From assembly GCA_000004695.1 (NCBI GenBank), contig CM000150.2, positions 4,480,001-4,544,000 on the forward strand: a DNA stretch of 64,000 nucleotides. The letters run 5' to 3'. The notes below the pieces were generated by a model. It saw only the letters and a program-made list of their open reading frames with translations, was not told the DNA's origin and made no database searches. This stretch comes from Dictyostelium discoideum. Taxonomy: Eukaryota. The position numbers and the translations under genes were made by a program. Below are positions 6,509 through 31,549 of this stretch, one piece after another; within the stretch, counting starts at the first letter, position 1; each line of letters starts with the position of its first letter.

Positions 6509-6596
6509 TAAAAAAAAATTATTATTATTATTTTTTTTTTTTTTTTTTTTTTTTTTTTATTTTTATAAAATTATATATATATATTAATAAAATATT

Positions 6597-9500
6597 TTAT
6601 CTTCTTGGTTTTCTTGTTATATAAACAAATGTAATAACCATAAGAGTATTAAATATCCAGAAACAAATAATAAGAGCTAAATTTCTCCATCTATTATCAA
6701 ATGACCAACCAAGTGTATTATAATATTCTTCACCATTGTTGTAAAGACAATAACCACATTTACTTTCATCACCTTCATTTATTGCTTCAACATAACCTGT
6801 TAATGGTTCTGAAATTGGGAAATATTGTTTACATGTCACACCATTTACAGCTTCTGGATTTGTAAAATGAGTGAAATCTTCTGATGTACACTTTACATCG
6901 GTATGTTTTAATACATTTGTAACAATACCTTCCATAAAGTAACGACATGGGTTTAAATGATACACCCATCCTCTCCAAAAGGTTGGAATTGACGATGGTA
7001 TTACCATTACTCCACAGAAAAGAAATAGGAAAACAATTAACAATGGAATGAGTGTATGTGCTAAAAACATGTTGAAACAAATTGCAGCTACAGCTTGACC
7101 GAAACTAACACAGAAATAGAGGAATAAAATGAAAATGAACCAAAAATAAAAATTAATATCATTGTATTCCGTATTTAAACCAGCTGTCCAAAAAGAGCAA
7201 AAGAAGAAAATTGTACCTGAAACTGTAATGAATGGTAATTCTACAACCACAATGGAAATTGCAAATGGGAACCAAGAATAAAATTTCGAAGCAAAATCTC
7301 TTTTAAAGTATTCTTTTTGCATAATGAATTGTGGAAGTACAACGAAAATTAATAAGATTCCAAGAATGAGTGCTTCAAAAATAAAGAATACACGTTGATT
7401 CATATCTGAACTTGATCCTTGTAATGACCAAAAAGTAAAACCAATAATTAAACCTGCAAGAGCTGATTGAATGAATGAACCATACGTATAGAATGGATCT
7501 CTCCACCAAATTAAATTTAAACGTTTATAAACTTCAATAGTTTGATACCATACTGATGTTGCAAATTCTCTAGGTTTACCATGGTCCTCGGTTGATGATG
7601 GTCCTGCTGCTTCCAATGCTGCTAATTCACGCTCAATCTCTTGTAATTCTGGTGATTGTTTCCAAGTTTCTGGCCAATTAACATCACTTTTACCATGTAC
7701 ACCTGCACCAGTTGCTTCTAAAATATATTCTGCTGGATTTTCACTTTCAGTACATGGACGAACACCATATCTTTCGAAATAAGATGTTAAAGTTTTTGAT
7801 CTTTCACCAATATCACCAAAGTAAACAGTTTTACCACCTTTTGCTAATAAAAGAATACGATCAAAATGTTCAAATAATACTGAAGAAGGTTGATGAATTG
7901 TACAAACTAATGGCATACCAGCATCTGCTAATTTACGAATAAATTTAACAATGTTATATGATGATTGAGCATCTAAACCTGATGTTGGTTCATCAAGGAA
8001 AAGAATATGTGGTTTTGCAACCAATTCTACACCAATTGTTAATCTTTTTCTTTCTTCAACGGAAATACCAACACCAGTTTCTAATGTACCAATTAAAGCA
8101 TCACCTAAATGTTTCATTTCCATCATTTCTAAAACATGTTCAACATAATCAAACTTTTCTTCTAATGAAACTGAAGGTTCTTGACGTAACTTTGCAGAGA
8201 AACGTAATGCTTCTCTTACGGTTAAACCTGGATTATGAACATCCATTTGTTCTACATAACCGGTAATACGTTCAAAATCAATTTCTAATGGTTTACCATT
8301 AAGGAAACATTTACCTTGAACTTCACCCATTGTTTTTCTTTTTGCTAATACATCGAGTAATGTTGTTTTACCAGCACCTGATGAACCCATTAATGCTGTC
8401 ATTTGACCTGGTTTAATCCAACCTTCAACATTATCTAATAGTAATCTTTTTCCACCTTTTACTGGTACAGTATAATTAATATTTTGCCAAGTGAAAATAC
8501 CACCTCTCATTTTTAAAGTATCTTTCATTTTACTTGTAGCATTTGCAACTATTTGATTTTGTTTCTTTTCTTCCTCAGCATCATTCATTTTTGGAGCTTT
8601 ACCTTTTTTATAAACTTTATGACTATAACCTCCACCAGTCCAATCGAAATATTCCATTGCAAACATATTCATAGCGGTAAATAGTACCCACCAAAGATAA
8701 GTGATGAAAACATTTTGAGTAAGATCATCTGATCTAAAGTGTAAATACTGATCCAAATAATCTTTACCTTCAACACTTAAAATACCTTCAACAGCACCAG
8801 GCGATGCACAAACTCTATAATCATTGTCGTATCTTGTAGGATTTTTTGGATCAAATGGAATTGCTGTATCATGACAATCAAATGATAAATCACCAAATTC
8901 ATTTGCCATAAGTGCTTTAAAAGCATAACTGAACGGATTTGCCCAATAAAACCAAGCAAACCATGGATGCATTTTTGGTTTTGGAATTGTATAACCACAA
9001 TATGTAATCATAAAGATAAGAATTACATTCATTACATTTTGACTAATGTAAAGTGATGGTGAGAAATTACCAAAGACACGGAAAAGATTTGTTGTTGCCA
9101 ATGTTGCACCTACTAATGTAAAACAGAAAATAAAGAATTTCCCAGCATTATATTGTAAACCAAACATAAAGTAAACTACAATTGAGAATAAAAATACTTG
9201 TATCATCGTTAAGGGTATATCAGTTACAATTTGTGCAATATGTAAAGCTGATGGACGATACATAGCGTAAGAACGTTGCTTTTGTAAAATACGACGACCA
9301 TACATAGTAAGTGGTAGTTCGGCTTCACTAAGGAAAGCATTGAATAGAATAGCTGAAAATATAGCACCACCTCTTGTAAATAAACCAGGAATTGTTTTTT
9401 CCATTTGAAAGAAAATTGAACCATAAACAAATGATTGAGTAAATACTGAAAGATAACGTGAAATCAATGAGAATTTATCACCCCAAATAATTTGAGAATT

Positions 9501-11085
9501 TCTAACGATTAATGCTTTGACTTGAGTTATATATGAAGTTGTATAAATTGATCTCTTTGGTGTAGTTCTACTTTTTTCAGCTTTAACTTCTTGAATGAAA
9601 TCAACTGCTGGTTGTTCAATTTCAATCTTTCTTTCATATTCTTTTTGTTCCTCTAACATATCTCTATACATTGAAGAGTTTCTCCAAGCAGCTTCAAAAT
9701 CGGCAGAAGTTTCTGGAACACGACCTTCAAATCCTTGTCTAATAATACGTTCTTGTGGATTTGTAACACCTGTCAAAAAATCTGGTGTTGATTTTCTTGG
9801 TTCGCAATCGAATCCTAAATCTATAAAATATTGTTTTGCTTTATTGCCAGGTCCAAAATAAATTAATCTACCTTTTTCAATGATTGCGACATTATCAAAT
9901 AAATTATAGATTGAATCTGATGCTTGATAAAATGATGCGATTGTTGTCTTATCTAATGTATCTGACATGATACGAATTGATTTTGCATAATCTAATGCAC
10001 TTGCTGCATCAAGACCACGAGTTGAACAATCATAACATGTAATTGATGCTGATGATACCATTGCTTCTGTAATTGTTAATCTTTTACGTTCACCACCTGA
10101 TAAACCTCTAATAAATTCATTACCAACAATCTTAAAAAAAAAAATAATTAATATCAATTAATAAATTAATTTTATTAAAAACTAAATACTTACAGTATCA
10201 GCTTGATGAACAATACCAAACATTCCTAATAATAAATCAAATATTTTTTGTCTATATGTACGTTTCTTTTCATCTGGCAAACGATTATGAATTGTTTTGC
10301 ATTTTAATGCGAAATCTAAAGTCTGACGAACTGTTAAAGTTGGATGATGAGTATCCTCTTCTGGTGTATAAATTGATTCACCTTGATAACGTTTCCATTC
10401 TTTCGCTGGGATACCACCATATTTAATATCACCTTTAACTTCAACATATGATCCTCTTTGATTTGATATTAAACGCAATAATGTCTATTGTAGTGAAAAT
10501 AAACATTATTAATATTATTTCTAAAAAATATATAAACACATATAAATTTATAATATTTACCGAACAACCAGAACCAGGACGACCTAATACTAATAACATT
10601 CCACCATCTCTATTGAATAAAGTAATATCATGAAGAATATCAAAAGTACTACCTTTCTCTTTCCAAGTTGATGGTTTAAACAAATTGAAAAAACTAATGA
10701 ATGGAGTTGACATATCGGCAATGACGGATTGATCAGCACCTCTACCAACAACTGTTAAATTTCTAATTGAAACACCCATTTTCTTTGGTTTTTGACCATT
10801 TCCTAATGCCATACGTTGAGAATTTTCAAAGTATCTTCTTAATTTAAAATCTTCATCATTTTCATCATGATTATTTTCAGCATCATGACCTGCCAAATAT
10901 TGTTTTGAATCGATTTCCAATTCTCTTTCGACATTTTTAAATTGATTTTCACTCTTTTGAATATCTGGTGAATCTGGTGGTGATGATCCATCACCAACAG
11001 GATTATCATAATTTGGAGGTGTATTAATATCTAAATTACTCCCACCTTCTTGAAGAGCAATTTCTCTTAATTCATATTCTTCCAT
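6597..11085 (-). CDS. ABC transporter G family, full-size PDR-type (NBD-TMD)2, paralog 1; exons 11085-10561, 10484-10194, 10130-6597
   Basis: NBD1 Walker A GRPGSGCS|TLL is split by intron 10485-10560 (gtaaat...aatag). The junction ...HQADT|[17 protein letters not shown] is split by intron 10131-10193 (gtaagt...ttttaag). It is followed by a 1186-aa uninterrupted ORF carrying NBD2 Walker [16 protein letters not shown], signature [12 protein letters not shown], Walker [13 protein letters not shown], and two 6-TM domains. Start is [12 protein letters not shown] at 11085. Confidence 0.9.
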
Positions 11086-11861
11086 TATATTTGTATATAT
11101 GGAAAAATAATGAATTTAAATTTAATCTTTATTTTTTTTTTTTCTTAAATTTATAAAAAAAAAAAAAAAATATAATTAAAATACAGAGATATATAAATAA
11201 TAATATAATAAATACAGAGATATATAAATAATAAAAAAAAAAAAAAAAAAAGTTAGTATTTAAATTTTTAAACAGAAAAAAAATAAAAAAATAAAAAAAT
11301 AAAATTAATTAAATATTAAAATTTAGATTAACAATGTTGTTATATATAAACATAAATCGAAATTTTGTTTTTAAGTGATGCAATTTAGCGAAGTAAAGAA
11401 TCATATTATTTTTTTTATTAAAAAAATGGGGTGTATTTGTGTGGGTAAAGAATAAATTAGAACAATAAGAATGTGGGGGTAATGGTGTTAAAAAGCAAAT
11501 TATATTTTTATTATTTTTATTATTTTTATTTTTATTTTTATTATTATTATTTATATTATTTTTATTACTATTATTGTTGCAATTAAAAAAATAAAAATAA
11601 AATTGTATAGATAATTTTACATTTAATTGACTTTTAATTTTACTTTAATCCAAAAATATTTTAATTTTACTTTAATCCAAAAATATTTTAGAATAATTAA
11701 TTATATGTATATATTAAATTTAATTTAATGAAAAAAAAAAAAAAAAAAAAAAAAAAAAGATAAAGTAAAATAATTTATAGTAATTTTATTTTTCTAAAAA
11801 AAAAAAAAAAGATTAAAAATGAAAATTCGAAAAAATTATTAATATATTATAAATATTTTTT

Positions 11862-12003
11862 TTATTTATATGATTAATGTTGGCGCATTCAATCGTTCAA
11901 AAACTAATCTAAAAGTCCAAATTTGGTTCGGAAAAGTCCCTATTTTAATAAACAATCAAAAATCCACTTTTAGAAATTTATTTTAAAATGTTGTAATGAG
12001 ATG
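11862..12003. repeat. left arm of ~140-bp inverted repeat in the ABCG inter-paralog spacer
   Basis: tttatttatatgattaatgttggcgcattcaatcgttcaaaaactaatctaaaagtccaaatttggttcggaaaagtccctattttaataaacaatcaaaaatccacttttagaaatttattttaaaatgttgtaatgagatgg is about 90% identical to the reverse complement of 12669-12810. Confidence 0.6.
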
Positions 12004-12590
12004 GTTTTTTTAAAAAAAATAAAATAAATAATTAAAATTAATTGGAAATCGCTATCAAGATGTCATTTAGAAGCTTTTTTTTTCAGATCCAAAATTAATT
12101 TAATTAAAAATATTTAAAAAAAAAATAAAAAAAAATAAAAAAAAATTAAAAAAAAAAAAATAAAAAAGAAAAAATAAAAAATAATAAAAAAAAAAATTAA
12201 AAAAAAATAAAATTAAAAATAATAAAATTAAATTTAATAAAATTTGGAAAAACGATGTTGCAATAGATGAGGCTCATTAATGACACTATAACCTTATTCC
12301 AAAAAATAAATAACCCCACAGTTATTTTTTTGTATTTTTTTTTTTTTTTTTTATTTTAAAATTGAATCATAAAATATTATTTAGAACCATTCTGAATAAT
12401 TCTTTTTTATTTGAATACCTGGTGTTTAAGAAAAAAAATAAAAAAAAATAAAAAAAAAAGTAAAATGGGAAAATAATTTGATTGGAAAAAAAAAAAATAA
12501 AAAAATTTAATAAAAAGGTTATTTTTTTTTTATTGTTATTTAATATTTTTATTAATTTTATTTTTTATATTATTATTATTATTATTTTTT

Positions 12591-12672
12591 CCATCTGTTT
12601 TCAAATGACCAACCAAGTGTATACTGTGGTGAAGAATATTATAATCCCCATTGTTGTAAGACAATAACCACA
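12591..12672 (-). pseudogene. relic of ABCG 3' coding end with internal ~21-bp micro-inversion
   Basis: ccatctgttttcaaatgaccaaccaagtgtatactgtggtgaagaatattataatccccattgttgtaagacaataaccacat aligns to 6696-6765 and 13318-13387 (the minus-strand C-terminus ...[18 protein letters not shown]). The segment tgtggtgaagaatattataat is the reverse complement of the corresponding gene sequence. It abuts the right inverted-repeat arm. Confidence 0.5.
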
Positions 12673-12810
12673 TCTCATTAGGACATTTTAAAATAAATTT
12701 CTAAAAATGGATTTTGATTGTTTATTAAAATAGGGACTTTTCCAAAACAAAATTTGGACTTTTATATTAACTTTTGAAAGATTGAATACACCAACATTAA
12801 TCATATAAAT
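12669..12810. repeat. right arm of inverted repeat (partner of 11862-12003)
   Basis: The reverse complement aligns to the left arm along its whole length. The two arms enclose about 660 bp with no long ORF. Confidence 0.6.
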
Positions 12811-13231
12811 AAAAAAAAAAAAAAAAAATCTGAAATATATTAATAATTTTTTGGAATTTTCTTTTTTGATCTTTTTTTTATATTTTAAAATTAAATTACT
12901 ATAAATATTTTACTAATTTTTAAAGGTCAATAAAATGATTAATAGGTACCTTATTACATAATTATATTTCAAATTGTTCTACTAAAATGACATATGGCGT
13001 TGATGATTAATAAAAACTTCAATTATTTTCGAACATCATTCCAACAAATCATTTTTATAGTAGGAATTTTGAAAAAAAAAAAAAATAATAAACAATAAAC
13101 AATAAACAATAAAATTAATATATTTTTTTTTATTGTTAAATATTATTATTAATTTTATTTTATTGTTTATAATTATTATTTATTTATTTATTTTTTATTT
13201 ATTTTTTATTTATTTTTTTTTGGTTGAGATT

Positions 13232-16200
13232 TTATCTTCTTGGTTTTCTTGTTATATAAACAAATGTAATAACCATAAGAATATTAAATATCCAGAAACA
13301 TATTAAAATAGCTAAATTTCTCCATCTATTATCAAATGACCAACCAAGTGTATTATAATATTCTTCACCATTGTTGTAAAGACAATAACCACATTTACTT
13401 TCATCACCTTCATTTATTGCTTCAACATAACCTGTTAATGGTTCTGAAATTGGGAAATATTGTTTACATGTTACACCATTTACAGCTTCTGGATTTGTAA
13501 AATGAGTAAAATCTTCTGATGTACACTTTACATCGGTATGTTTTAATACATTTGTAACAATACCTTCCATAAAGTAACGACATGGGTTTAAATGATACAC
13601 CCATCCTCTCCAAAAGGTTGGAATTGACGATGGTATTACCATTACTCCACAGAAAAGAAATAGGAAAACAATTAACAATGGAATGAGTGTATGAGCTAAA
13701 AACTAAATTTTTTTTTTTTTTTTAAATGATTAATATTAATTTTTTTTTTTTTTTTTTTTTAATAAATAAAATGAGTCTTACCAAATTAAAACTAATTGCA
13801 GATACTGCTTGACCAAAGCTAACACAAAATAAAAGACTATAAAAAAATTTATAAAGATATCTAATTAGTAATTTCCTTTTTTTTTTTTTTTTTTTTTAAC
13901 AACCTACTATAAAATTAAAATAAACCAAAAATAAAAATTGATTTCATTAAATTTAGTATATAAACCAGCTGTCCAAAAAGAACAAAAGAAAAAAAAAGTA
14001 CCAGATATTATTACAATTGGTATCTCCACTGCAACTATTGAAATTGCAAATGGAAACCAAGAATAAAATTTTGATGCAAAATCTCTCTTAAAGTATTCCT
14101 GTTGCATAATGAATTGTGGAAGTACAACGAAAATTAACAAAATTCCAAGAATGAGTGTTTCGAAAATAAAGAATACACGTTGACTCATATCTGAACTTGA
14201 TCCTTTTAATGACCAAAAAGTAAAACCCATTATCAAACCTGCCATTGAAGCTTGAATGAATGAACCATACGTATAGAATGGATCTCTCCACCAAATTATA
14301 TTTAAACGTTTATAAACTTCAATAGTTTGATACCATATTGGTGTTGCAAATTCTCTTGGTTTACCATGGTCTTCAGTCGATGATGGTCCTTGTGCTTCCA
14401 ATGCTGCTAATTCACGCTCAATCTCTTGTAATTCTGGTGATTGTTTCCAAGTTTCTGACCAATTAACATCACTTTTACCATGTACACCTGCACCAGTTGC
14501 TTCTAAAATATATTCTGCTGGATTTTCACTTTCAGTACATGGACGAACACCATATCTTTCGAAATAAGATGTTAAAGTTTTTGACCCTTCACCAATATCA
14601 CCAAAATAAACAGTTTTACCACCTTTTGCTAATAAAAGAATACGATCAAAATGTTCAAATAATACTGAAGAAGGTTGATGAATTGTACAAACTAATGGCA
14701 TACCAGCATCTGCTAATTTACGAATAAATTTAACAATGTTATATGATGATTGAGCATCTAAACCTGATGTTGGTTCATCAAGGAAAAGAATATGTGGTTT
14801 TGCAACCAATTCTACACCAATTGTTAATCTTTTTCTTTCTTCAACGGAAATACCAACACCAGTTTCTAATGTACCAATTAAAGCATCACCTAAATGTTTC
14901 ATTTCCATCATTTCTAAAACATGTTCAACATAATCAAACTTTTCTTCTAATAAAACTGAAGGTTCTTGACGTAATTTTGCAGAGAAACGTAATGCTTCTC
15001 TCACGGTTAAACCTGGATTATGAACATCCATTTGTTCTACATAACCGGTAATACGTTCAAAATCAATTTCTAATGGTTTACCATTAAGGAAACATTTACC
15101 TTGAACTTCACCCATTGTTTTTCTTTTTGCTAATACATCGAGTAATGTTGTTTTACCAGCACCTGATGAACCCATTAATGCTGTCATTTGACCTGGTTTA
15201 ATCCAACCTTCAACATTATCTAATAGTAATCTTTTTCCACCTTTTACTGGTACAGTATAATTAATATTTTGCCAAGTGAAAATACCACCTCTCATTTTTA
15301 AAGTATCTTTCATTTTACTTGTAGCATTTGCAACTATTTGATTTTGTTTCTTTTCTTCCTCAACATCATTCATTTTTGGAGCTTTACCTTTTTTATAAAC
15401 TTTATGACTATAACCTCCACCAGTCCAATCGAAATATTCCATTGCGAACATATTTAAAACAATGTAAAGTATCCACCAAAGATAAAGTATAAAAACATTT
15501 TGAGTAAGATCGTCTGATCTAAAGTGGAATGACTCTTCAATATATTTAGAACCTGATACTGTTAAATTTCCCATTGATGCACCAGGAGATGCACAAATTC
15601 TATAACTATTATCATATACTATAATTTTATTTGGATCAGATGGAATTGCTGTATCTTGACAATCGAATGATAAATCACCAAATTCATTTGCCATAAGTGC
15701 TTTAAATGCATAACTAAATGGATTACACCTATAAAAAAAGAAAAAAAAAAAAAAAAATTATTAATATATATTCCTTAAATTTTAATAAAATTATTTTAAT
15801 TAAAAAAACTTACCAATAAAACCAAGAAAACCATGGATGCATTTTTGGTTTTGGAATTGTATAACCAGTGTATGTAATCATAGAAATGATGAAGATATTC
15901 ATTACATTTTGACTAATGTAAAGTGATGGTGAGAAATTACCAAACATACGGAAAAGATTTGTTGTTGCCAATGTTGCACCTACTAATGTAAAACAGAAAA
16001 TGAAGAATTTTCCAGCATCGTATTGTAAACCAAACATAAAGTAAACCACAATTGAGAATAAGAATACTTGAATAATCGTTAAGGGTATATCAGTAACAAT
16101 TTGTGCAATATGTAAAGCTGATGGACGATACATAGCGTAAGAATGTTGCTTTTGTAAAATACCCCTTTGTCCGAAAGTTAAAGGCATTTCGCATTCGCAT

Positions 16201-18057
16201 AAAAGAGCATTGAATAGAATAACTGAAAAAAGAGTACCACCTCTTGTAAATAAACCATTAATATTTGTTTCTAAATTATAAAATATTGAGCCATAAACAA
16301 ATGATTGAGTAAATACTGATAGGTATCTAGAGCCTAATGATAATTTATCACCCCAAATAATTTGGAAATTTCTAACGATTAACGCTTTAACTTGAGTTAA
16401 AAATGAAGTTGTATAAATTGATCTCTTTGAAGTGGTTTTACTTTTTTCGGCTTTAACTTCTTGAATGAAATCAACTGCTGGTTGTTCAATTTCAATCTTT
16501 CTTTCATATTCTTTTTGTTCCTCTAACATATCTCTATACATTGAAGAGTTTCTCCAAGCAGCTTCGAAATCGGCGAAAGTTTCTGGAACACGACCTTCAA
16601 ATCCTTGTCTAATAATACGTTCTTGTGGATTTGTAACACCTGTCAAAAAATCTGGTGTTGACTTTCTTGGTTCACAATCGAATCCTAAATCTATAAAATA
16701 TTGTTTTGCTTTATTGCCAGGTCCAAAATAAATTAATCTACCTTTTTCAATGACTGCAACATTATCAAATAAATTATAAATTGAATCTGATGCTTGATAA
16801 AATGATGCAATTGTAGTCTTATCCAATGTATCTGACATGATTCGAATTGATTTTGCATAATCTAATGCACTTGCTGCATCAAGACCACGAGTTGAACAAT
16901 CATAACATGTAATTGATGCCGAAGATACCATTGCTTCTGTAATTGTTAATCTTTTACGTTCACCACCTGATAAACCTCTAATAAATTCATTACCAACAAT
17001 CTAAATAATTTTTAAATATTAAAAAATAATATCAATTAATAAATTAACCAATATTATTATTATTATTAAAAACTTACAGTATCAGCTTGATGAACAATAC
17101 CAAACATTCCTAATAATAAATCAAATATTCTTTTTCTATATGTACGCTTTTTTTCATCTGGTAAACGATTATGAATTGTTTTACATTTTAATGCGAAATC
17201 TAAAGTCTGACGAACTGTTAAAGTTGGATGATGAGTATCCTCTTCTGGTGTATAAATTGATTCACCTTGATAACGTTTCCATTCTTTTGCTGGAATACCA
17301 CCATATGTAATATCACCTTTAACTTCAACATATGATCCTCTTTGATTTGAAATTAAACGTAATAATGTCTATAAAATTAAAAAAAAAATTATTAATATTA
17401 TTTTTATTACTAAAAAAAAAAAAAAATTAAAAAAAAAAAATTAAAATAGTTTACCGAGCAACCAGAACCAGGACGACCTAATACTAATAACATTCCACCA
17501 TCTCTGTTGAATAAAGTAATATCATGAAGAATATCAAAAGTACTACCTTTCTCTTTCCAAGTTGATGGTTTAAATAAATTTAAAATTTTAAATATTGGTG
17601 TTGATAAATCTGAAATTACAGATTGATCAGCACCGACACCCACGACTGTTAAATTTCTAACTGAAACACCCATTTTCTTTGGTTTTTGACCATTACCTAT
17701 TTTTTAATAAATTTTAAAAATTAATATTTTTAAAAAAAAATAAAAAAATAATATAATATTAACCATCAACTCACCTAATGCCACACGTTGAGAATTTTCA
17801 AAATATTTTCTTAATTTAAAATCTTCATCATTTTCATTATGATTATTTTCAGCATCTAAATTTGATAAATATTGTTTTGAATCAGTTTCTAATTCATTGG
17901 CAATATATTTAAATTGATTTTCACTATTTTGGATATCTGGTGAATTTAATTGGAAATCATCACCAACCACACCAAAATTATTATTATTATTTGGTGTATT
18001 AATATTTAAATTTTCAACTTCCTGGAAAGAATACTCATTTAATTCAAATTCTTTCAT
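13232..18057 (-). CDS. ABC transporter G family, full-size PDR-type, paralog 2, with 7 introns; exons approx 18057-17775, 17696-17455, 17368-17078, 17000-15814, 15728-13908, 13836-13782, 13702-13232
   Basis: Protein is about 90% identical to paralog 1. Two introns are shared with paralog 1 (after GSGCS, and after ADT|IVGNEF). Four more appear only here, all GT-AG, phase-consistent and 71-85 bp. (1) Intron 17697-17774 splits QRVALG|NGQKPKK. (2) Intron 15729-15813 splits WFYW|CNPFSYAF. (3) Intron 13837-13907 splits FWFILILY|LLFCVSFGQ. (4) Intron 13703-13781 splits AISFNL|FLAHTLIP. Segments correspond to track ORFs 17704-18057, 17410-17673, 15810-16931, 13907-15694 and 13232-13678. Confidence 0.85.
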
Positions 18058-18758
18058 TTTTTTTTTTTTTTATTTTTAATTTTTTAATATTTGATTAAAA
18101 GAAAAAAAAAAAAAAAAAAAAGATAAGAGGTTTTCTAAAAATAGTTAGTATTTATAGTTTTATTATTATTTTTTTTTTTTTTTTTTTTTTTCACTTACAA
18201 TTTTTTTAATAATTTTTTTTTTTTTTAAAGATAAAAAAAGAAAAAAGTTTTTATTAATAACCACTTATTTTTCATTTATTAAGTTTAGCTTTTATACCAA
18301 AAAAAAAATAAAAAAAAAAAAATAATAAAAAATAATAAAAATAAAAAAATAAAATAAAATAATGAAAATAATAAAAAAGCCATTATAAAATTTTATAATG
18401 ACTCACTATCCAAATATGGTAAAAGCAAATACTTTATAAAGACATTGCACGGTTTGAAAACAATCAAAAAAAAAAAAAATTTAAAGCCAACACCAATTTT
18501 TTATTTTTTTATTTTTTTTTTATTTTTGAAACGTTTCAAAGACACTAGAACGTTATTTTGTTCCGTTACTGATTATAAAAATAAATTGATTGAAAATAAA
18601 ATTTTGTAAGGACCCTTAACTTGACAAATTTAGAAGGAGTGATTGCCAAATACAATCAAGTTACACAAAAAATTTTAAAAATCAATTGTGATTGCATATT
18701 TATTTTTACGAGAACAATAAAGAATAACGGAACGGAATGAATTTAGTTTAAGACCAAA

Positions 18759-22536: not shown

Positions 22537-22776
22537 TTAATTATCATAATCTTCATCTCTTTCATCTTCATCCAATTCACCAAAAGAACTATCGGAAGGA
22601 TCATCATCATCAAGAGGATTAAATCTTTGTTTTTTGTTTGGTTGATGTCGTTGTTGGTGTTGCTGTTGTTGATAGGAATGATGTTGGTATTGATTATTGT
22701 TATTATGGTTACTATTATAATTATTATTGTTATAGTTATTATGGTTGCTTTTATGATGAAGTTGTTGTAGTTGAGG

Positions 22777-22841
<65 letters not shown>

Positions 22842-23360
22842 GAGGTTGTTGTTGTTGTTGTTGAGGTTGTTGTTGTTGTTGAGGTTGTTGTTGTTGTTGA
22901 GGTTGTTGTTGTTGAGGTTGTTGTTGGGGTCTTGTTACAAAAGTTGGTTGTGGATTTGGTTCATCATCATTAGTGAGGTTTGATAGTGACATTGGATCAT
23001 ATCTTTTACCGCCACCATTATTGATATTATTGAGGTTTGTATTGCTATTGTTATTGTTGTTAATGTTGTTAAAATTACTTATCATATTGTTATTGTTATT
23101 ATTACCACTACTATTTGAACTATAATCCCTAAACTCTCTATTGTCTCTGTTTGGTCTATTATCTCTATGTTCTCTATGTTCTCTATTTTCTCTGTTTTCT
23201 CTATTTTCTCTGTTTTCTCTATCACCTCTATGTTCTCTATTTTCTCTGTGACGCTCTCTGTGCTCTTTGTGATTACTAGATCTATGCTCTTTGTGTTCTC
23301 TGTGATGATCTTTGCCACTGTGATCTCTTTGATTATTATTGTTGGTATTATTGTTGTTGC

Positions 23361-23393
<33 letters not shown>

Positions 23394-24051
23394 TATTATT
23401 ATTATTATTATTATTCATATTATTATTATTATTATTATTATTATTGTTATTACTATTATTATTATTATTATTATTGTTCATATTATTCATATTATTCATA
23501 TTATTATTATTATTATTATTATTAATCATATTATTATTATTATTATTCATATTATTATTATTATTATTAATATTAATGTTACTATTATTGTTATTATTAT
23601 TACTGTTATGGTGATGGTGATCGCTTCTATTTGATTCTCTACTATGATGTTCTTTTTGATCTCTACTTCTCTCTCTGTCTCTCTCTCTACCCTCTTTACT
23701 TTCCTTTTGTCTTTCTCTATCCCTGTCTCTATCCCTGTCTCTATCTCTATCTCCACCCTTACTTGATTTTGACGATGATGATTTAGATTTTTGTGGAGTT
23801 TGATTAGGGTTTTGAGATTGTTGATGGTTTTCATTATTGTTGTTAATATTATTATTGTTATTATTAATATTATTATTATTATTGCTAATGTTGTTATTTT
23901 GAGAAAGGTTACATGGTGAAGCAGGTGGGGATAAGCTATTATTGTTATGGTTTCCTTTCGAATTATTTAAAAGTTTAGTTGAAGTAGTAGTTGTGGTTGA
24001 GTTATTTTTATCTACATTTGGGCTTTGGATTGCTTGTTGTTGTTGTGGTTT

Positions 24052-24100
<49 letters not shown>

Positions 24101-27100
24101 GGTTGTGGTTGTTGTTGTGGTTGTTGTTGAGGTGATTGTTGAGTTATAGTTGGCTGAGATTGTTCAATAGTTGATGTGGTAGATGATTGATCAGCACTAT
24201 TACTTTTATCTTGATGTTCAGAAATATCAAGTTGATCTTTTACGATTTGATCTTTAACAGTAGCTTGTTGAATTGCTAATGAAGTTGGAGATAATGGTGG
24301 TTCTGGTTTCGGTAATTGATTATTTGGGAAGAGTTTATTGAAAAGTTCAGTGAAAAGATTTTGTAAATAGACAGCATCTTCAAATACTTCTGAACCTGAT
24401 TGATTATAAATTTGAGCATTATAAAACATTGAATTGACACTGGCAGCAAAAGATAATGGATTTGAAAACTTGGCACCCACAATTCTTTCTTTTATAGTTT
24501 TCATATCGATTGGTTCTTTAATGGTTATATAATAATCTGGATAATCTCTTTTACTTGGTAATTTGACAAAGATATCACTTCTCTTTCTACCTTCTTCATC
24601 TTGATCGGCTCTAATTGCATCCCAAATTTGGAGATACTTTTGTTCATTCTCAGAGATCTTCTTTTTCATTGTACCTGCTGGTCTACCTCTACCTGCTTTC
24701 TTTACTGGTGATGGTGATGGTAAAGGTGGTTGAGCAGTAATAGATGATGATGATGAAGATGATGGTGTTAATGGTGTTGATGGATTAGAGTTTGATGAAT
24801 CATCACCACCGCCACCACCACCACCACCACCATTACTATTGGCTTTCTTTTCTTTTTCCTGTTTCTTACTTGAAGCAGAAGGTTTCTTTGAGGCAGCAAC
24901 CTTTGCTCTCTTTTTAGATCTTACAGGACGTTGGAAATCTTCATCTTCTTCATCTTCTTCATCTGCGTCATCATCGTCATCCTCTTCATCTGAATAATTA
25001 CTTTCCAATTCTTTTCTCTTATTAGTACGAGATGGAGTTGTTGCAACAACCGAAACATTATTATTATCATAATCATCATTATTATTATTATTATTACTAT
25101 TATTATCGTCATCATCATCATCTAAACCATTTGTATCCTTATCTTTTAATTTTTCTTTTGTATTCTTTTTCTCTTTACGATTATTTGATTCTTTGGAAGA
25201 TTTTGGTTTATCTGAAGTTGTAGTACGTTTTGGAGTTGGTTTAGATTCGAAATCAGAGTCTGAATCAGAAGAAGAAGAGGAGGATCCATCGTCATCATCA
25301 TCAAAGAATTCTGAAATCATAGCATTATTATTTGCAGTTTTTCTTTTAATTTTACCACTTTCCAAAATTTTACGAATTTGTAATTCATTTTCAAGATCTA
25401 AAGATTTCTTACTTGAACCAGGTTTGATTGATTGATTGAGTACAAAACTTAAATCATCACCCAATTCGACCTCTTTAGTGATCCAACTTGGTATTTCATC
25501 CTCTTGACTTAATCTTTTAGCCTCACCTTTTTTACCTGCTTCATCCCATTTCTTTTGATCGATTTCCATTCTCTCTTTATCCATATTTTCATACAATTCA
25601 AACTCTTCAGGAGAACGAGCAATCATTTCATTGATTTGAGAATCGGTGGGTACTGTTTGTTTCTCCATTTCAGCGGTTTCATCTTGAGTCATTAAATCCT
25701 CCAACATTTTCTTTCTATCGGAACGATTTGATTTATTATTGAATTGACCAGCTTGAATGATCTTTTTATCCAATTCTTTCTTAAAGTTTGCTCTTGCTAA
25801 AATACTCTCCTCAACGGAATGAGCAGTGACCAAACGAAGTACACGTACAGTTTGTTTTTGACCAATACGATGTGCACGATCTTGTGCTTGAAGATCCATT
25901 TGTGGATTCCAATCTGAATCGAAAATGATAACAGTATCGGCAGTTTGTAAATTTAAACCTAAACCACCTGCTCTAGTTGAAAGTACGAAAATGAAATACT
26001 CAGAGTTTGGAGCATTGAATAACTCTAAGAGATGACCTCTTTCGTCGGATTTTGTTGAACCATCTAAACGAAGGAATTTGTAATCTTTATAAGCGAAAAA
26101 CACCTCCAAAATATTGATCAATTGAGTCATTTGTGAAAATATTAAAACTCTATGTCCAGCAGCTTTTAACTTTGGTAATAGACGATCCAACAAATCAAAC
26201 TTACCTGCATATCTAATTAGATTATCATCGATATTATACTCGTCATCATAGAAAAGGTAAGGATGATTGCAAATCTTTCTTAATTGAACATAGGTATTCT
26301 TTAGACCTTTTGCTAATTTTGGATTACCATCGGCACCACCAGAACTTGCAAGTTTTGAAACACCCTTTGTTTTAATGAGATCGTACATTTTCGCTTGAAA
26401 AGCCGACATATCACATTTCAATACTTTCTCAACTTTATCTGGTAACTGAGCTTCTACCTCTTTCTTTAATCTTCTTAAGAGAAAAGGTCTTAAAACCTTA
26501 TGAAGACGTTGAATGATTAAAAGTTGTTCCTCTTCATTCATTTCAATCTTTTCACCAGTTTGAGCGAATGGAGCATTAAACCATTGTTCGAAATCTTCAA
26601 CACAATCGAAAATGGTTGGTAGTAAAAAGTTTAACAAAGCCCAAAGCTCTGGTAAACTATTTTGAAGTGGTGTACCAGTCAATAGTAATCTATAACGACT
26701 TGAATAAGAGGTACCCAAAATAATCGATAGTTTACTAGTGTAGTTTTTCATTCTATGACCCTCATCAACGATTAGATAATTCCATTTAATCTTACTTAAT
26801 GCATTCTTATCCTTGATGATATATTCATAGGTTGTTACAACGGCATTGAATTGACCTGGTGCTATAAACTCTTCAAACTTTGATTTTCTAGCAGGTTTAT
26901 CACCATAGTATAAAACACGTTTAACCTTTGGTGCCCATTTTGAAAACTCTTGTCCCCAATTGGAAAGTGTTGACAATGGTACCACAACTAAAAAGGGTCC
27001 ATTATTCTTTTTTACCTCTATCAAATAGGATACCAAAGCAATGGTTTGAATCGTTTTACCAAGACCCATTTCATCCGCTAAAATACCATTCAATTTATTG

Positions 27101-27287
27101 TTATACAATGAAACCATCCATTGAAGTCCTTGCATTTGATATGGTTTTAATTTACCACCTTCTAATAATGCTGGTTGTTCAATAATATCTTCTTGAATTG
27201 AATGTGCTTTTGAATAATATGAATGTGCTTTTGAAACATATGTTGGATTTGTTTGACCTGTTGCTGTTGAAGTTGTTGTTGTTGTAG

Positions 27288-27319
<32 letters not shown>

Positions 27320-27658
27320 GGTGGTGGTGCTGTTGATGTTTCTGTTGTTGTGGTAGATATTGATTTATCATCAACTTTTATATTTGATGAATTATCATCA
27401 CCATCAATAGTTGTTGCTTTTGATTGATCTTTATTATCATTATCTTTCTTTTCTTGAATTTCTTTTGAATTTTTATCTGTATGTTGACCAGAATCATTTT
27501 TCATTATAACATCAGTATTGGATGATGCAGAGGTAGTAGTCGTGGTATTATCGTTTGTTATTTTTTCATCATCTTTATTATCATTTAAACCTATATCATC
27601 TTCATCATCACCATAACCACCTTGATTATTGATACTAACTTTAGGTTTATTACCATTA

Positions 27659-27753
<95 letters not shown>

Positions 27754-29716
27754 ATTACTATTATTATTATTATTATTATCATCTAACATTTGATTATTAT
27801 CATCATTATCATCATCATCATCATCATCTTTACCATTTAATAAATTTGAAATTGGATTTGAAGAACGAACTAAAGGTGATTTTGAATTATTTGAAAGATC
27901 TCTATTTGTTGTATTACCATCAGTATCGATATCAACATCATTTGTTATATTCATGATACTAATTTTTTCAGATTGTTTAGCATCTTCTTCACCTTCTTTT
28001 TCTTTTTGTTGTAAAAGTAATTGATCTTGTTGTCTTCTGATTGCCTCTTCATTCTCTTCTTTCTCTTGAATTGAAATCTTTTCCTTTTGAAGAAGATGAG
28101 AGATTTTATCTAAAAATTCATTGGTTTGATCAAACAATTCACGTAGACGTTGATTTTTAGTTTGTTCCAAGAGTTTAAGGTATTTACTTTCATCATTGGT
28201 TTTGAGTGCACGAAGACGTTCACGCTCTTCTCTCTCTCTTTGTTGTTGTTCTTTCTTTTCTTGTAGGATGAAATAAGCGGTGACACGTTTTGTCATCTTT
28301 TTAATCTTTGTCATTTTGTTTGCATGATACTCTTTAAACTCTTTACTATGATTAAGAATTTGACCCAAGAAATCTTTGAATCTATTCTTTTCCTCATTGG
28401 ATTGTTGTTGATCAAGTTTTTGTTTGAGATCTTTAGATTTCTTTAATTTGGATTTACTAATCTCTGCATCCAATACCTCCCTTCTTAATTGTTTTTGATA
28501 TTCCAACAATGACAATTGTTTATATTGAATGGTCTCTTGAAGTTTCTCAATAGTACCATCCTCTAATGTTGGAATGGACTCATAGAGATATTCAAGTTTA
28601 TCCGATATCAATTGACTAACCAAATTTCTTTTACATTCCAACATGAATTCAATATCCATTGGTTTAGGTATCAATGTTTCCATTGGCAAACTTTTTAATG
28701 GATCAATTGGAATTGATGGTGGCTCTGGTTCTACAACTGGTGTTTGATTTATAATTTGTTGTTGTTGTTGTTGTTGTGTTGGTTGTATTTGTGAAACTAC
28801 CATCGGTTGTGTTGCTATAATACCACCATTGGTAGGTGTTGCTATAACACCGCCATTGGTAGGTGTTGTAGTTGATACTGACGACACTGCTATTACTTGT
28901 GTTGGAATAACAACAGTTGATACAAGTGCTGCTGGTGTATTTATTGATGTTGGTGTAGTTACTAAACTTGGTACAGCATTTGGTTGTTGATTTATTTGTT
29001 GAGGATCTTGTTGGGATTGTTGTTGTTGAGTTATTTGCTCTGATTGTTGTTGGGGTTGATTTTGTTCTGGTTGTTGTTGTGCTTGCATGCTTTGTGTTTG
29101 CTCTGATGACTGTACTTGTTCTGGTTGTTGTTGGGATTGTTGTTGGGGTTGGGGTTGTAAATTTTCTGGTTGTTGTAAGTGTTCTTGTTGTTGTTGTTGT
29201 TGTTGTTGTAAGTGTTCTGGTTGTTGTTGTTGTAAATTTTCTGATTGTTGTTGTGATTGTTGGTGTTGTGGTTGTTGGATTTGTTGTGGTTGGGGTTGTT
29301 GGGCTTGGGTTTGTTGTTGCTGCTGCTCTGGTTGCACTTGGGATTGTGGTTGTGGTTGAGTTTGTTGTTGAGTTTGTGGTTGAGTTTGTTGTGTTTGTTG
29401 AGCTTGTTGAGTTTGTTGGTATGTTTGTTGAGCTTGTGGTTGTTGGTATGTTTGTTGAGTTTGTGGTTGAGTTTGTTGTGTTTGTTGAGTTTGTGGTTGA
29501 GTTTGTTGGTATGTTTGTTGAGCTTGTGGTTGTTGTAACAACTGAGATTGTTGGTGTTGAATCAATCTTTGTTGTTGTAATAGTTTTTGATGTAACATTT
29601 GCTGTTGTATTAACTGTTGTTGGTTTAGTGTCTGTCCTGGTGGTGCCTGTATTTGTTGTAATTGTTGTTGCATCATTTGGTATTGTTGATTTAATGATGC
29701 AATGTTGTTATAAATA

Positions 29717-29752
<36 letters not shown>

Positions 29753-30721
29753 CTAGTATTACTATTGTTGTTGTTGTTATTATTGTTGTTATTGTTATTG
29801 CTATTGCTATTGTTATTACTATTGCTATTGCTATTGCCACTGCTATTGTTATTGTTATTGCTATTGTTATTGCTATTGTTATTGTTATTGCTATTGTTAT
29901 TGCTATTGTTATTGTTATAACTAATATTATTAATATTGTTATTTCCAATATTTCCGTTATTATTACTGATATTGGCACTATTATTGGTGCTATTACCACT
30001 ATTGTTATTACTATTAATATTGCTATTTGTATTATTATTCATATTATTATTATTATTATTATTATTATTCATATTATTATTCATACCATTATTATTATTC
30101 ATATTATTATGATTCATATTATTATTATTACTATTATTATTGGTATTATTATTATTCATATTATTATTCATGTTATTCACACCATTATTATTATTCATAT
30201 TATTATTCATATTACTATTATTATTACTATTCATATTATTATTATTCATATTACTATTACTATTATTGTTATTATTATTATTAACATTACTATTATTTGT
30301 ATTCATTTGTACAACAGACGGTGAAGATTGATTTATAAATGTTGAAGGATGAGCCAATTGCAAGATTCCATAATACTCCTCCGTAATGGGTTTTCTTTGC
30401 ATGAAGCATTTATACGCATAAACCTGAGCTCTAATAACATCAAGTTGTTCTTGTGTAAAAAAAAATGCTGGTGGAGCTAATAATTTTTGTTGAATTGGTT
30501 GTGGTTGTTGCGCTTTCATTTGTTGCTGATTTTGATTTTGGTTTTGATTTTGATTTTGGTTTTGGTTTTGGTTTTGGTTTTGGTTTTGGTTTTGGTTTTG
30601 GTTTTGGTTTTGGTTTTGGTTTTGGTTTTGGTTTTGGTTTTGATTAAAATGTTGATGTTGTGGTTGTTGGAATTGTTGGTTTTGTTGATGTTGATGTTGT
30701 TGTTGGTGTTGTTGTTGTTGT

Positions 30722-30768
<47 letters not shown>

Positions 30769-31085
30769 TTGCTGTTGCTGTTGCTGTTGTTGTTGTTGTA
30801 AAAGTAATTGTTGTTGCATCAATTGTTGTGTAGATGGAATGTTGGGTGATGTCATATTTGGTGAGGTTACATTCATATTTTGTTGATGTTGTAAATGTTG
30901 CTGTTGTTGATGCTTCATTTGTTGCTGTTTCAATTGAGCCTCGTATGCTGCTTGTTGCTGTTGTTGTTGGATTTGGGGTTGTTGTTGTTGAGGTTGTTGT
31001 TGATGTTGATGTTGTTGATGTTGTTGATGATGTTGATGGTATTGTTGTTGTGGTTGTAAAAATTGTTGTGGTTGTTGTTGTGGTG

Positions 31086-31116
<31 letters not shown>

Positions 31117-31152
31117 CTGTTGTGTTTGTGGTTGATGTTGTTGTTGTTGCGG

Positions 31153-31187
<35 letters not shown>

Positions 31188-31549
31188 GCTGCTGTTGTTG
31201 TACCATTGCCAATTTTCTTTGCACTAAAATATTATGTTGTCGAAGGATTTTATTATAGAGATCCAACTCTTGCTGATTTAAAGAAGAAAATGGCTGTGGG
31301 TTCTTTAAAAAATTTATACAACTTTGATAATTAGGTTCTGAGATATCTGTTCCATTGGTTTGTAAATTATCTAAATACTATATAGGTTTTGAACAAATAA
31401 AAAAAGAAAAAAAAAAAAAAAAAAGTTAATAACAAACCCTTTGGTAATAATAAAAATAATGAAAAACACTTACAACATAGACTTCAACATGTTGGTTTTT
31501 TGTAGGAACTTGTTGTTGTTGTTGTTGTTGCATCATATTTGTTTGTTGA

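Follow-up and report, generated by a model that had tools for sequence, protein, structure and literature searches.

Probable template-switching origin of a strain-polymorphic inverted repeat and ABCG gene relic in Dictyostelium discoideum

The 2.1-kb spacer between two tandem ABCG genes of Dictyostelium discoideum AX4 holds a pair of long inverted-repeat arms and, adjoining the inner end of the right arm, a decayed copy of the 3′ end of one of the genes. We consider it likely that this structure is a lineage-specific, strain-polymorphic complex structural variant, made by template switching near the 3′ end of gene copy B and then subject to decay, and that it is not a mobile element. The region lies in a 64,000-nucleotide stretch of chromosome 1 (hereafter the window), which is extremely AT-rich and includes the genes DDB_G0270764, DDB_G0270242 and DDB_G0270258. 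Both ABCG genes are of the PDR type, lie in tandem on the minus strand and have ABC2_membrane, PDR_CDR and ABC_tran domains. Between copies A and B, identity is 90–94% over the greater part of the coding sequence and 80% in the first exon. Homology between them stops at 6519/13167 at the latest, and the flank contained in R2 (below) is unlike that of copy A. Upstream of the two genes, the only matches between the copies are poly(A) low-complexity ones, and the D. citrinum spacer contains no detectable homolog of the region upstream of copy B (18059 to ~19025). The order from left to right is IR-L, loop, R1, IR-R, X2, R2 and the remainder of B, with the following coordinates:

ABCG copy A, 6519-11086, minus strand.
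IR-L, left arm, 11764-12003, unstranded: ancestral DNA upstream of copy A, 680-920 bp 5′ of its ATG; template of the inverted copy.
Loop, 12004-12484, unstranded: ancestral ABCG upstream intergenic DNA, AT-rich, with short ORFs only, none credible.
R1, relic, 12485-12673, minus strand: left copy of a ~320-bp direct duplication comprising the B 3′ flank and the last ~163 nt of the B coding sequence; aligns to 13071-13182 and 13317-13394.
Micro-inversion block, 12623-12649, unstranded: a 19-nt exact inverted stretch with 4 + 4 unmatched filler bases, net +11 nt; AX4 only.
IR-R, right arm, 12671-12914, unstranded: a derived copy of IR-L in inverted orientation, abutting the relic at a CAT microhomology.
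X2, 12915-13070, unstranded: 156 bp with no detectable source; AX4 only.
R2, 13071-13394, minus strand: right copy of the duplication; functional 3′ flank and coding end of copy B, with the stop codon at 13232-13234.
ABCG copy B, 13160-18058, minus strand: stop codon at 13232-13234.

A repeat search returned an inverted pair at 11856-12003 and 12671-12818, with arms of 148 nt that are 82% complementary when ungapped and have 667 nt between them. With gaps, the core arms align at 91% (blastn, 91.3% over 149 nt, E = 8e-46 in the 64-kb window). The repeat extends outward past an A/T run, such that 11764-12003 aligns to 12914-12671 with 85.9% identity over 249 columns, and a composition-aware Smith–Waterman local alignment of the arms scores 193, compared with 14.8 ± 2.0 in shuffles. 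A previous description of this DNA, made from its letters and hereafter the sequence-only reading, had reported two reverse-complement arms of ~142 bp at ~90% identity; the arms are real and their core identity is 91%, but their actual length is ~240 bp, at ~86% overall. No further copy of the arm was found in the 64-kb window. That reading was also right that the DNA between the arms is AT-rich and lacks a long ORF, the longest ORF in the loop being a low-complexity one of just 61 aa with a TTG start.

The sequence-only reading had further placed a copy of the ABCG 3′ coding end against the right arm, and we find it at 12586-12673, where the sequence matches the 3′ coding ends of both paralogs (6682-6759 and 13317-13394). 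In a gap-tolerant alignment, the left part of the relic corresponds to the 3′ flank of copy B (13071-13182), which has no counterpart beside copy A. Since the relic matches B-specific flank as well as coding sequence, B was its source and it postdates the A/B duplication. R1 is a degenerate direct copy of the B 3′ end, lying 0.6–0.7 kb to the left of R2, and in AX4 it has a 134-bp internal deletion between its flank and coding parts, with the stop codon gone. The relic alone matches the genes; no other ABCG pieces were found in the spacer.

The history of these pieces could be ordered by comparison with orthologous loci from six assemblies, which were located via a neighbouring C39-peptidase-like protein and an SDR protein: D. 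discoideum FIR (L002, L003) and FIW (L004), D. cf. discoideum FIY (L007) and FIZ (L008), and D. citrinum FIU (L005) and FIV (L006). A tree of three flanking genes reads (citrinum,(FIZ,(FIY,(AX4,(FIR,FIW))))). In these flanking genes FIR and FIW are 99.2–99.3% identical and AX4 is ~96–98.6% identical to either of them, while identity is 95.6–98.1% between FIY and AX4, ~94–96% for FIZ and 88–94% for D. citrinum. The tandem ABCG pair is present in all five D. discoideum and D. cf. discoideum genomes (AX4, FIR, FIW, FIY and FIZ). Both D. citrinum assemblies have one ABCG gene between the same neighbours and no tandem pair; a D. dimigraforme locus (L001) likewise has no tandem pair and was uninformative.

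The left arm and the loop are old. Every assembly has an ortholog of IR-L, with only one copy of the sequence in FIW, in FIZ and in the two D. citrinum assemblies. The IR-L core is 99% identical among AX4, FIR and FIW and 82–85% identical to D. citrinum. The region upstream of the single D. citrinum ABCG gene is collinear with AX4 from 11087 to ~12289, with recognisable blocks on to ~12490, and from this collinearity IR-L and the loop are ancestral upstream DNA. The right arm and the relic are derived. IR-L and IR-R occur as a pair only in AX4, FIR (149 nt, 94%) and FIY (110 nt, 92%), and FIW, FIZ and D. citrinum lack IR-R. When all arms were aligned, the three IR-R copies were found to have derived bases in common and to group as a single clade within the IR-L sequences of discoideum, branching off later than D. 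citrinum and FIZ; they sit on long branches and evolve faster than IR-L. In FIZ, which carries both ABCG genes, R occurs once and IR-R is missing. As FIZ branches first, the state without relic and IR-R is most simply ancestral, such that the rearrangement, missing in FIZ and D. citrinum, is a derived state with an identifiable ancestral allele. The FIZ empty allele could in principle be a clean R1 × R2 recombinational deletion instead. A single gain after the FIZ split fits the strain tree.

The carriers differ in how much of the rearrangement they retain. The FIY relic is longer and undeleted, with the region of the stop codon and the point where upstream DNA meets the 3′ end of B both still present, and FIY has lost the outer half of IR-R. 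The 134-bp relic deletion is common to AX4, FIR and FIW. The FIW allele, for its part, is not empty: a 19-nt remnant from the start of the relic coding sequence (CCATCTGTATTGTCAAATT) is fused there to the stop codon of B, and relative to its 99% identical sister FIR it has a 437-bp deletion at an ATT microhomology, which removes IR-R. In FIW copy B (L004, oriented ~18058-18080) the relic flank is thus joined to the stop codon, so that the 3′ UTR differs from that of FIR. IR-R has therefore been deleted twice, partly in FIY and wholly in FIW.

The junction between the relic and the right arm is the most informative point of the structure. It reads AACCA-CAT-CTCATTA, i.e. AACCA-CAT-CTCATTAC, and is the same in AX4, FIR and FIY, with an extra TTCAT repeat at this position in FIY. 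The gene continues AACCA-CAT-TTAC and the reverse complement of IR-L reads AAAC-CAT-CTCATTAC, leaving a 3-nt microhomology, CAT, shared by the two sources. Identity of this junction in AX4, FIR and FIY points to a single origin. The homology between the arms ends exactly at the relic junction, and homology to IR-L is not resumed beyond the relic. The second junction, from the outer end of IR-R to the start of R2, falls in A/T runs and has been overwritten by X2 in AX4 and by deletion in FIY. The inserted segments are both copies of DNA within 1.6 kb, the relic a direct one (of 13071-13394) and IR-R an inverted one (of 11764-12003).

These observations are what would be expected under the following order of events. 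The ABCG gene would have been duplicated in the D. discoideum lineage, and a later replication or break-repair accident would have struck the 3′ end of copy B, with a nascent 3′ end stopping at the equivalent of 13394, inside the B coding sequence. This end may then have folded back, on the same or the sister strand, to the ATG at the inner end of IR-L (12000-12002), ~0.7 kb upstream, by means of CAT. From there ~240 nt of upstream DNA would have been copied in reverse, leftward to ~11764, giving IR-R, before a switch back to ~160 bp outside the B stop codon allowed the B 3′ end to be copied a second time. The product would be the upstream DNA on the left followed by R1, IR-R, R2 and the remainder of B, that is, a tandem duplication with an inverted insert at its junction, and gene B would be left intact. 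Later decay comprises the 134-bp relic deletion (AX4, FIR and FIW), the truncation of IR-R from its outer side to about half (FIY) and the 437-bp deletion (FIW), together with a 19-nt micro-inversion and the ~156-bp insertion X2 in AX4 only. The strain comparison itself establishes the polarity of the changes, the common junction and the sequence in which the steps took place; the enzymology and the single-step origin of R1 and IR-R are inferred. A two-switch, microhomology-mediated pattern is that of FoSTeS/MMBIR, or of fold-back priming followed by re-invasion. At the level of enzymology, the structure is consistent with MMBIR/FoSTeS-type template switching or with fold-back priming at a double-strand break. 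The sequence-only reading had put forward a fold-back, template-switching repair event for both the arms and the micro-inversion: the shared 3-nt junction and the duplication with an inverted insert agree with this for the arms, and the micro-inversion has to be separated from it (see below).

That R1 and IR-R arose in one step is suggested by their constant co-occurrence in just three carrier genomes. Apart from the FIW deletion derivative, neither IR-R nor the relic occurs alone in any assembly, and no intermediate allele was seen among the compared assemblies. It could alternatively be proposed that two unrelated events occurred, the inverted repeat forming first and the inner edge of the right arm later happening to receive a copy of the B 3′ end. 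The region does accumulate independent indels and rearrangements, as the 134-bp and 437-bp deletions, X2 and the micro-inversion illustrate. However, besides the co-occurrence of the two pieces, this alternative has to contend with arm homology that stops exactly at the relic junction and with the lack of resumed IR-L homology on the far side of the relic, and we regard it as improbable.

A different suggestion, also made in the sequence-only reading, is that repeat and relic together are a scar left at the original breakpoint when the ABCG gene was duplicated in tandem, formed in the same event as copy B. Their location in the spacer beside the 3′ boundary of copy B would suit such an origin, as would arm and relic identities of 86–93%, which are close to the 90–94% of the A/B coding sequences. 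Against it, the boundary at which upstream DNA joins the 3′ end of B is found in R1 as well as R2, most clearly in FIY, so this boundary predates the R duplication and the event is later than the creation of gene B. Moreover, FIZ, the first-branching discoideum-like strain, has both ABCG copies without relic or IR-R, and the IR-R clade is nested within discoideum IR-L, near the FIY split. With the boundary of gene B already held by both R copies, we find a breakpoint scar highly improbable.

The remaining alternative is a non-autonomous TIR DNA transposon of MITE-like or thug-like type, in which the arms would be terminal inverted repeats and the ABCG fragment captured cargo. In its favour are the long, ~240-bp inverted termini around a non-coding, AT-rich interior of 667 bp, and a predicted fold in which the arms pair end to end if single-stranded; small DNA-transposon families called Thug do exist in D. 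discoideum, where they make up ~0.1% of the genome (PMC5633606). The strain comparison speaks against a unit that moves. Left arm and loop are ancestral, being collinear with D. citrinum upstream DNA, and the right arm alone has been gained or lost; FIZ, FIW and D. citrinum retain left arm and loop, such that in no allele is the repeat-bounded unit missing in its entirety. The right arms descend from the left arm at this locus and postdate the divergence of D. citrinum, and at its inner end the right arm meets gene sequence through a microhomology. A target-site duplication is lacking, a trivial 2-nt AA being present at the full arms and nothing at either the boundaries first proposed or those of the core. 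No other copy occurs in the window or, outside the orthologous site, in ~140 kb of related loci (seven of 20 kb), and two metagenome scans with conserved arm motifs gave no matches. The MITE or thug-type element offered by the sequence-only reading is therefore barely credible, and a comparison of orthologous loci, which that reading had proposed as a check, instead shows a left arm present everywhere and a right arm and relic that are derived and absent in D. citrinum and FIZ.

Two features of the AX4 structure are younger than the template-switching event that we favour for the arms and relic. The sequence TGGTGAAGAATATTATAAT at 12627-12645 (plus strand) is the exact reverse complement of 13352-13370 and 6717-6735, and this 19-mer has 3 matches in the window, with 0 expected from shuffles. 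An inversion within the relic had been noticed before and given as 21 bp; the inversion is present, with an exact stretch of 19 nt. In the FIR and FIY relics the same segment is uninverted (GTGTATTATAATATTCTTCACCATTG), which is at odds with the suggestion that the micro-inversion came from the same event as the arms, since both strains have relic and right arm. Because the segment is uninverted in FIR and FIY and X2 is missing there, the micro-inversion and X2 appear from the aligned alleles to be later, AX4-only changes, separate from the formation of the arms; features of this kind are read from one AX4 assembly. For X2, no homolog was found either elsewhere in the window or among the six other assemblies; the hairpin within it is weak and not significant (z = -1.5), and X2 probably extends to ~13123 as an insertion into the R2 flank. 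We also note that the X2 region (12915-13123) has an A-rich tail, GAAAAAAAAAAAAAAATAATAAACAATAAACAATAAA, and is bracketed by an imperfect direct repeat, CAATAAAATGATTAATA / CAATAAAATTAATATA.

For a genome-rearrangement specialist the structure is a new and unsurprising instance of a well-known kind of rearrangement. DUP-INV-DUP and DUP-TRP/INV-DUP structures have been described for FoSTeS/MMBIR in human genomic disorders. As in those structures, DNA within 2 kb was re-copied with one segment inverted and a 3-nt microhomology at the readable junction, and a duplication flanks the inverted insert with the gene left intact. Unlike the human cases, which range from kb to Mb, only ~0.6 kb was inserted here, in intergenic DNA of 85% AT and with the second junction blurred by later indels, and the mechanism is read from structure alone. 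In fold-back (snap-back) inverted duplication, a 3′ end pairs with a short complementary upstream site on the same strand and then extends. The inverted copy described here, with its inner end at a microhomology site (CAT/ATG, 12000-12002), resembles such a product. A simple fold-back would, however, interrupt B, whereas here the B 3′ end is duplicated and B is intact, which calls for a second switch to the original template.

The likeness to MITEs and to Thug/DDT-S elements lies in the inverted termini, the short, non-coding, AT-rich interior and the hairpin potential. It ends with the lack of a target-site duplication, with one terminus that is ancestral single-copy DNA, with a unit that is never wholly absent and with no second copy in the window and related loci; Thug was compared by description only. 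By contrast, thug-S is multicopy and yields miRNAs (PMC4894637, PMC6161686). A structure that looks MITE-like in raw sequence thus turns out, on strain comparison, to be in all likelihood the scar of a local rearrangement, and the main value of the analysis is this clean negative. It further provides a probable small DUP-INV template-switch case, resolved to the base pair and ordered phylogenetically, with stepwise decay in the extremely AT-rich D. discoideum genome.

A role for the arms as a source of hairpin RNA would be conceivable. In the plant proto-miRNA model, young hairpin small-RNA loci arise from inverted duplication. The present locus is like such young loci in being a recent, strain-polymorphic, long inverted duplication beside a protein-coding gene fragment, and differs from them in that its arms are promoter-region DNA and not ABCG coding sequence. 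In the predicted fold, the arms pair fully in both MFE and centroid structures. If transcribed, either from the copy A upstream region or by read-through from the copy B 3′ end, the 240-bp inverted duplication might give a long hairpin RNA and hence a very young, strain-polymorphic small-RNA locus. RdRP-dependent spreading from the sense ABCG fragment in the loop could then yield secondary siRNAs against the ABCG paralogs, and the right-arm deletions of FIW and FIY would reflect selection against the hairpin or its instability. Young miRNAs from unusually long hairpins have been reported in Dictyostelia (PMC11014262). We give the proposed small-RNA locus only a very slim chance.

Nothing in the data indicates a function. 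No tRNA was detected in the window, and the spacer yielded no Rfam family: the sole hit in 11000-13400 at E ≤ 10 was a chance one to DapZ (17.8 bits, against a cutoff of 56 bits). Arm ORFs are not conserved, and IR-R is fast-evolving as well as twice deleted. The ORFs in question have 38 codons and lie at 11870-11986 in the left arm and, mirrored, at 12688-12804 in the right arm. They were considered as coding sequence and rejected: between the arms there are frameshifts that compensate one another and substitutions that are mostly non-synonymous, and the frame is broken by indels in FIY, FIZ and D. citrinum.

The ABCG pair itself emerges as a recent, structurally unstable locus, with a duplication absent in D. 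citrinum, a 3′ UTR swap in FIW and an extra intron in copy B. The latter is a candidate for recent intron gain after gene duplication: it spans ~90 nt at 15724-15813 (minus strand) with canonical GTAAGT...TATAG ends and is also found in the copy B of FIW and FIZ. Copy A is uninterrupted at the corresponding site (8939-8943, tattgGGCAAATCC), and the D. citrinum gene is likewise without the insertion. In addition, the most 3′ intron region of copy B (13703-13909) exceeds the corresponding gap in copy A (7068-7124) and in D. citrinum by ~150 bp. Between AX4 and FIR/FIW, both ABCG copies differ by 4–6% at the nucleotide level (9000-11575 and 13124-15362; L002 and L004), while the flanking genes differ by 1.5–4%. 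The ABCG locus may be unusually polymorphic, or the paralogs may be undergoing gene conversion.

A literature search for the names of the two abcG genes returned nothing useful. When the ABCG ORF was searched against a protein database, the best match had 68% identity and no ABCG of D. discoideum or a close relative was returned; the same protein collection does contain other proteins of the window and their orthologs from other strains. Upstream of copy A, an exact 27-bp tandem duplication (TTTTAATTTTACTTTAATCCAAAAATA, twice) lies at 11632-11685. Elsewhere in the window, a minus-strand ORF of 2909 codons extends from 22537 to 31266, within a region of extreme GC and AT skew.
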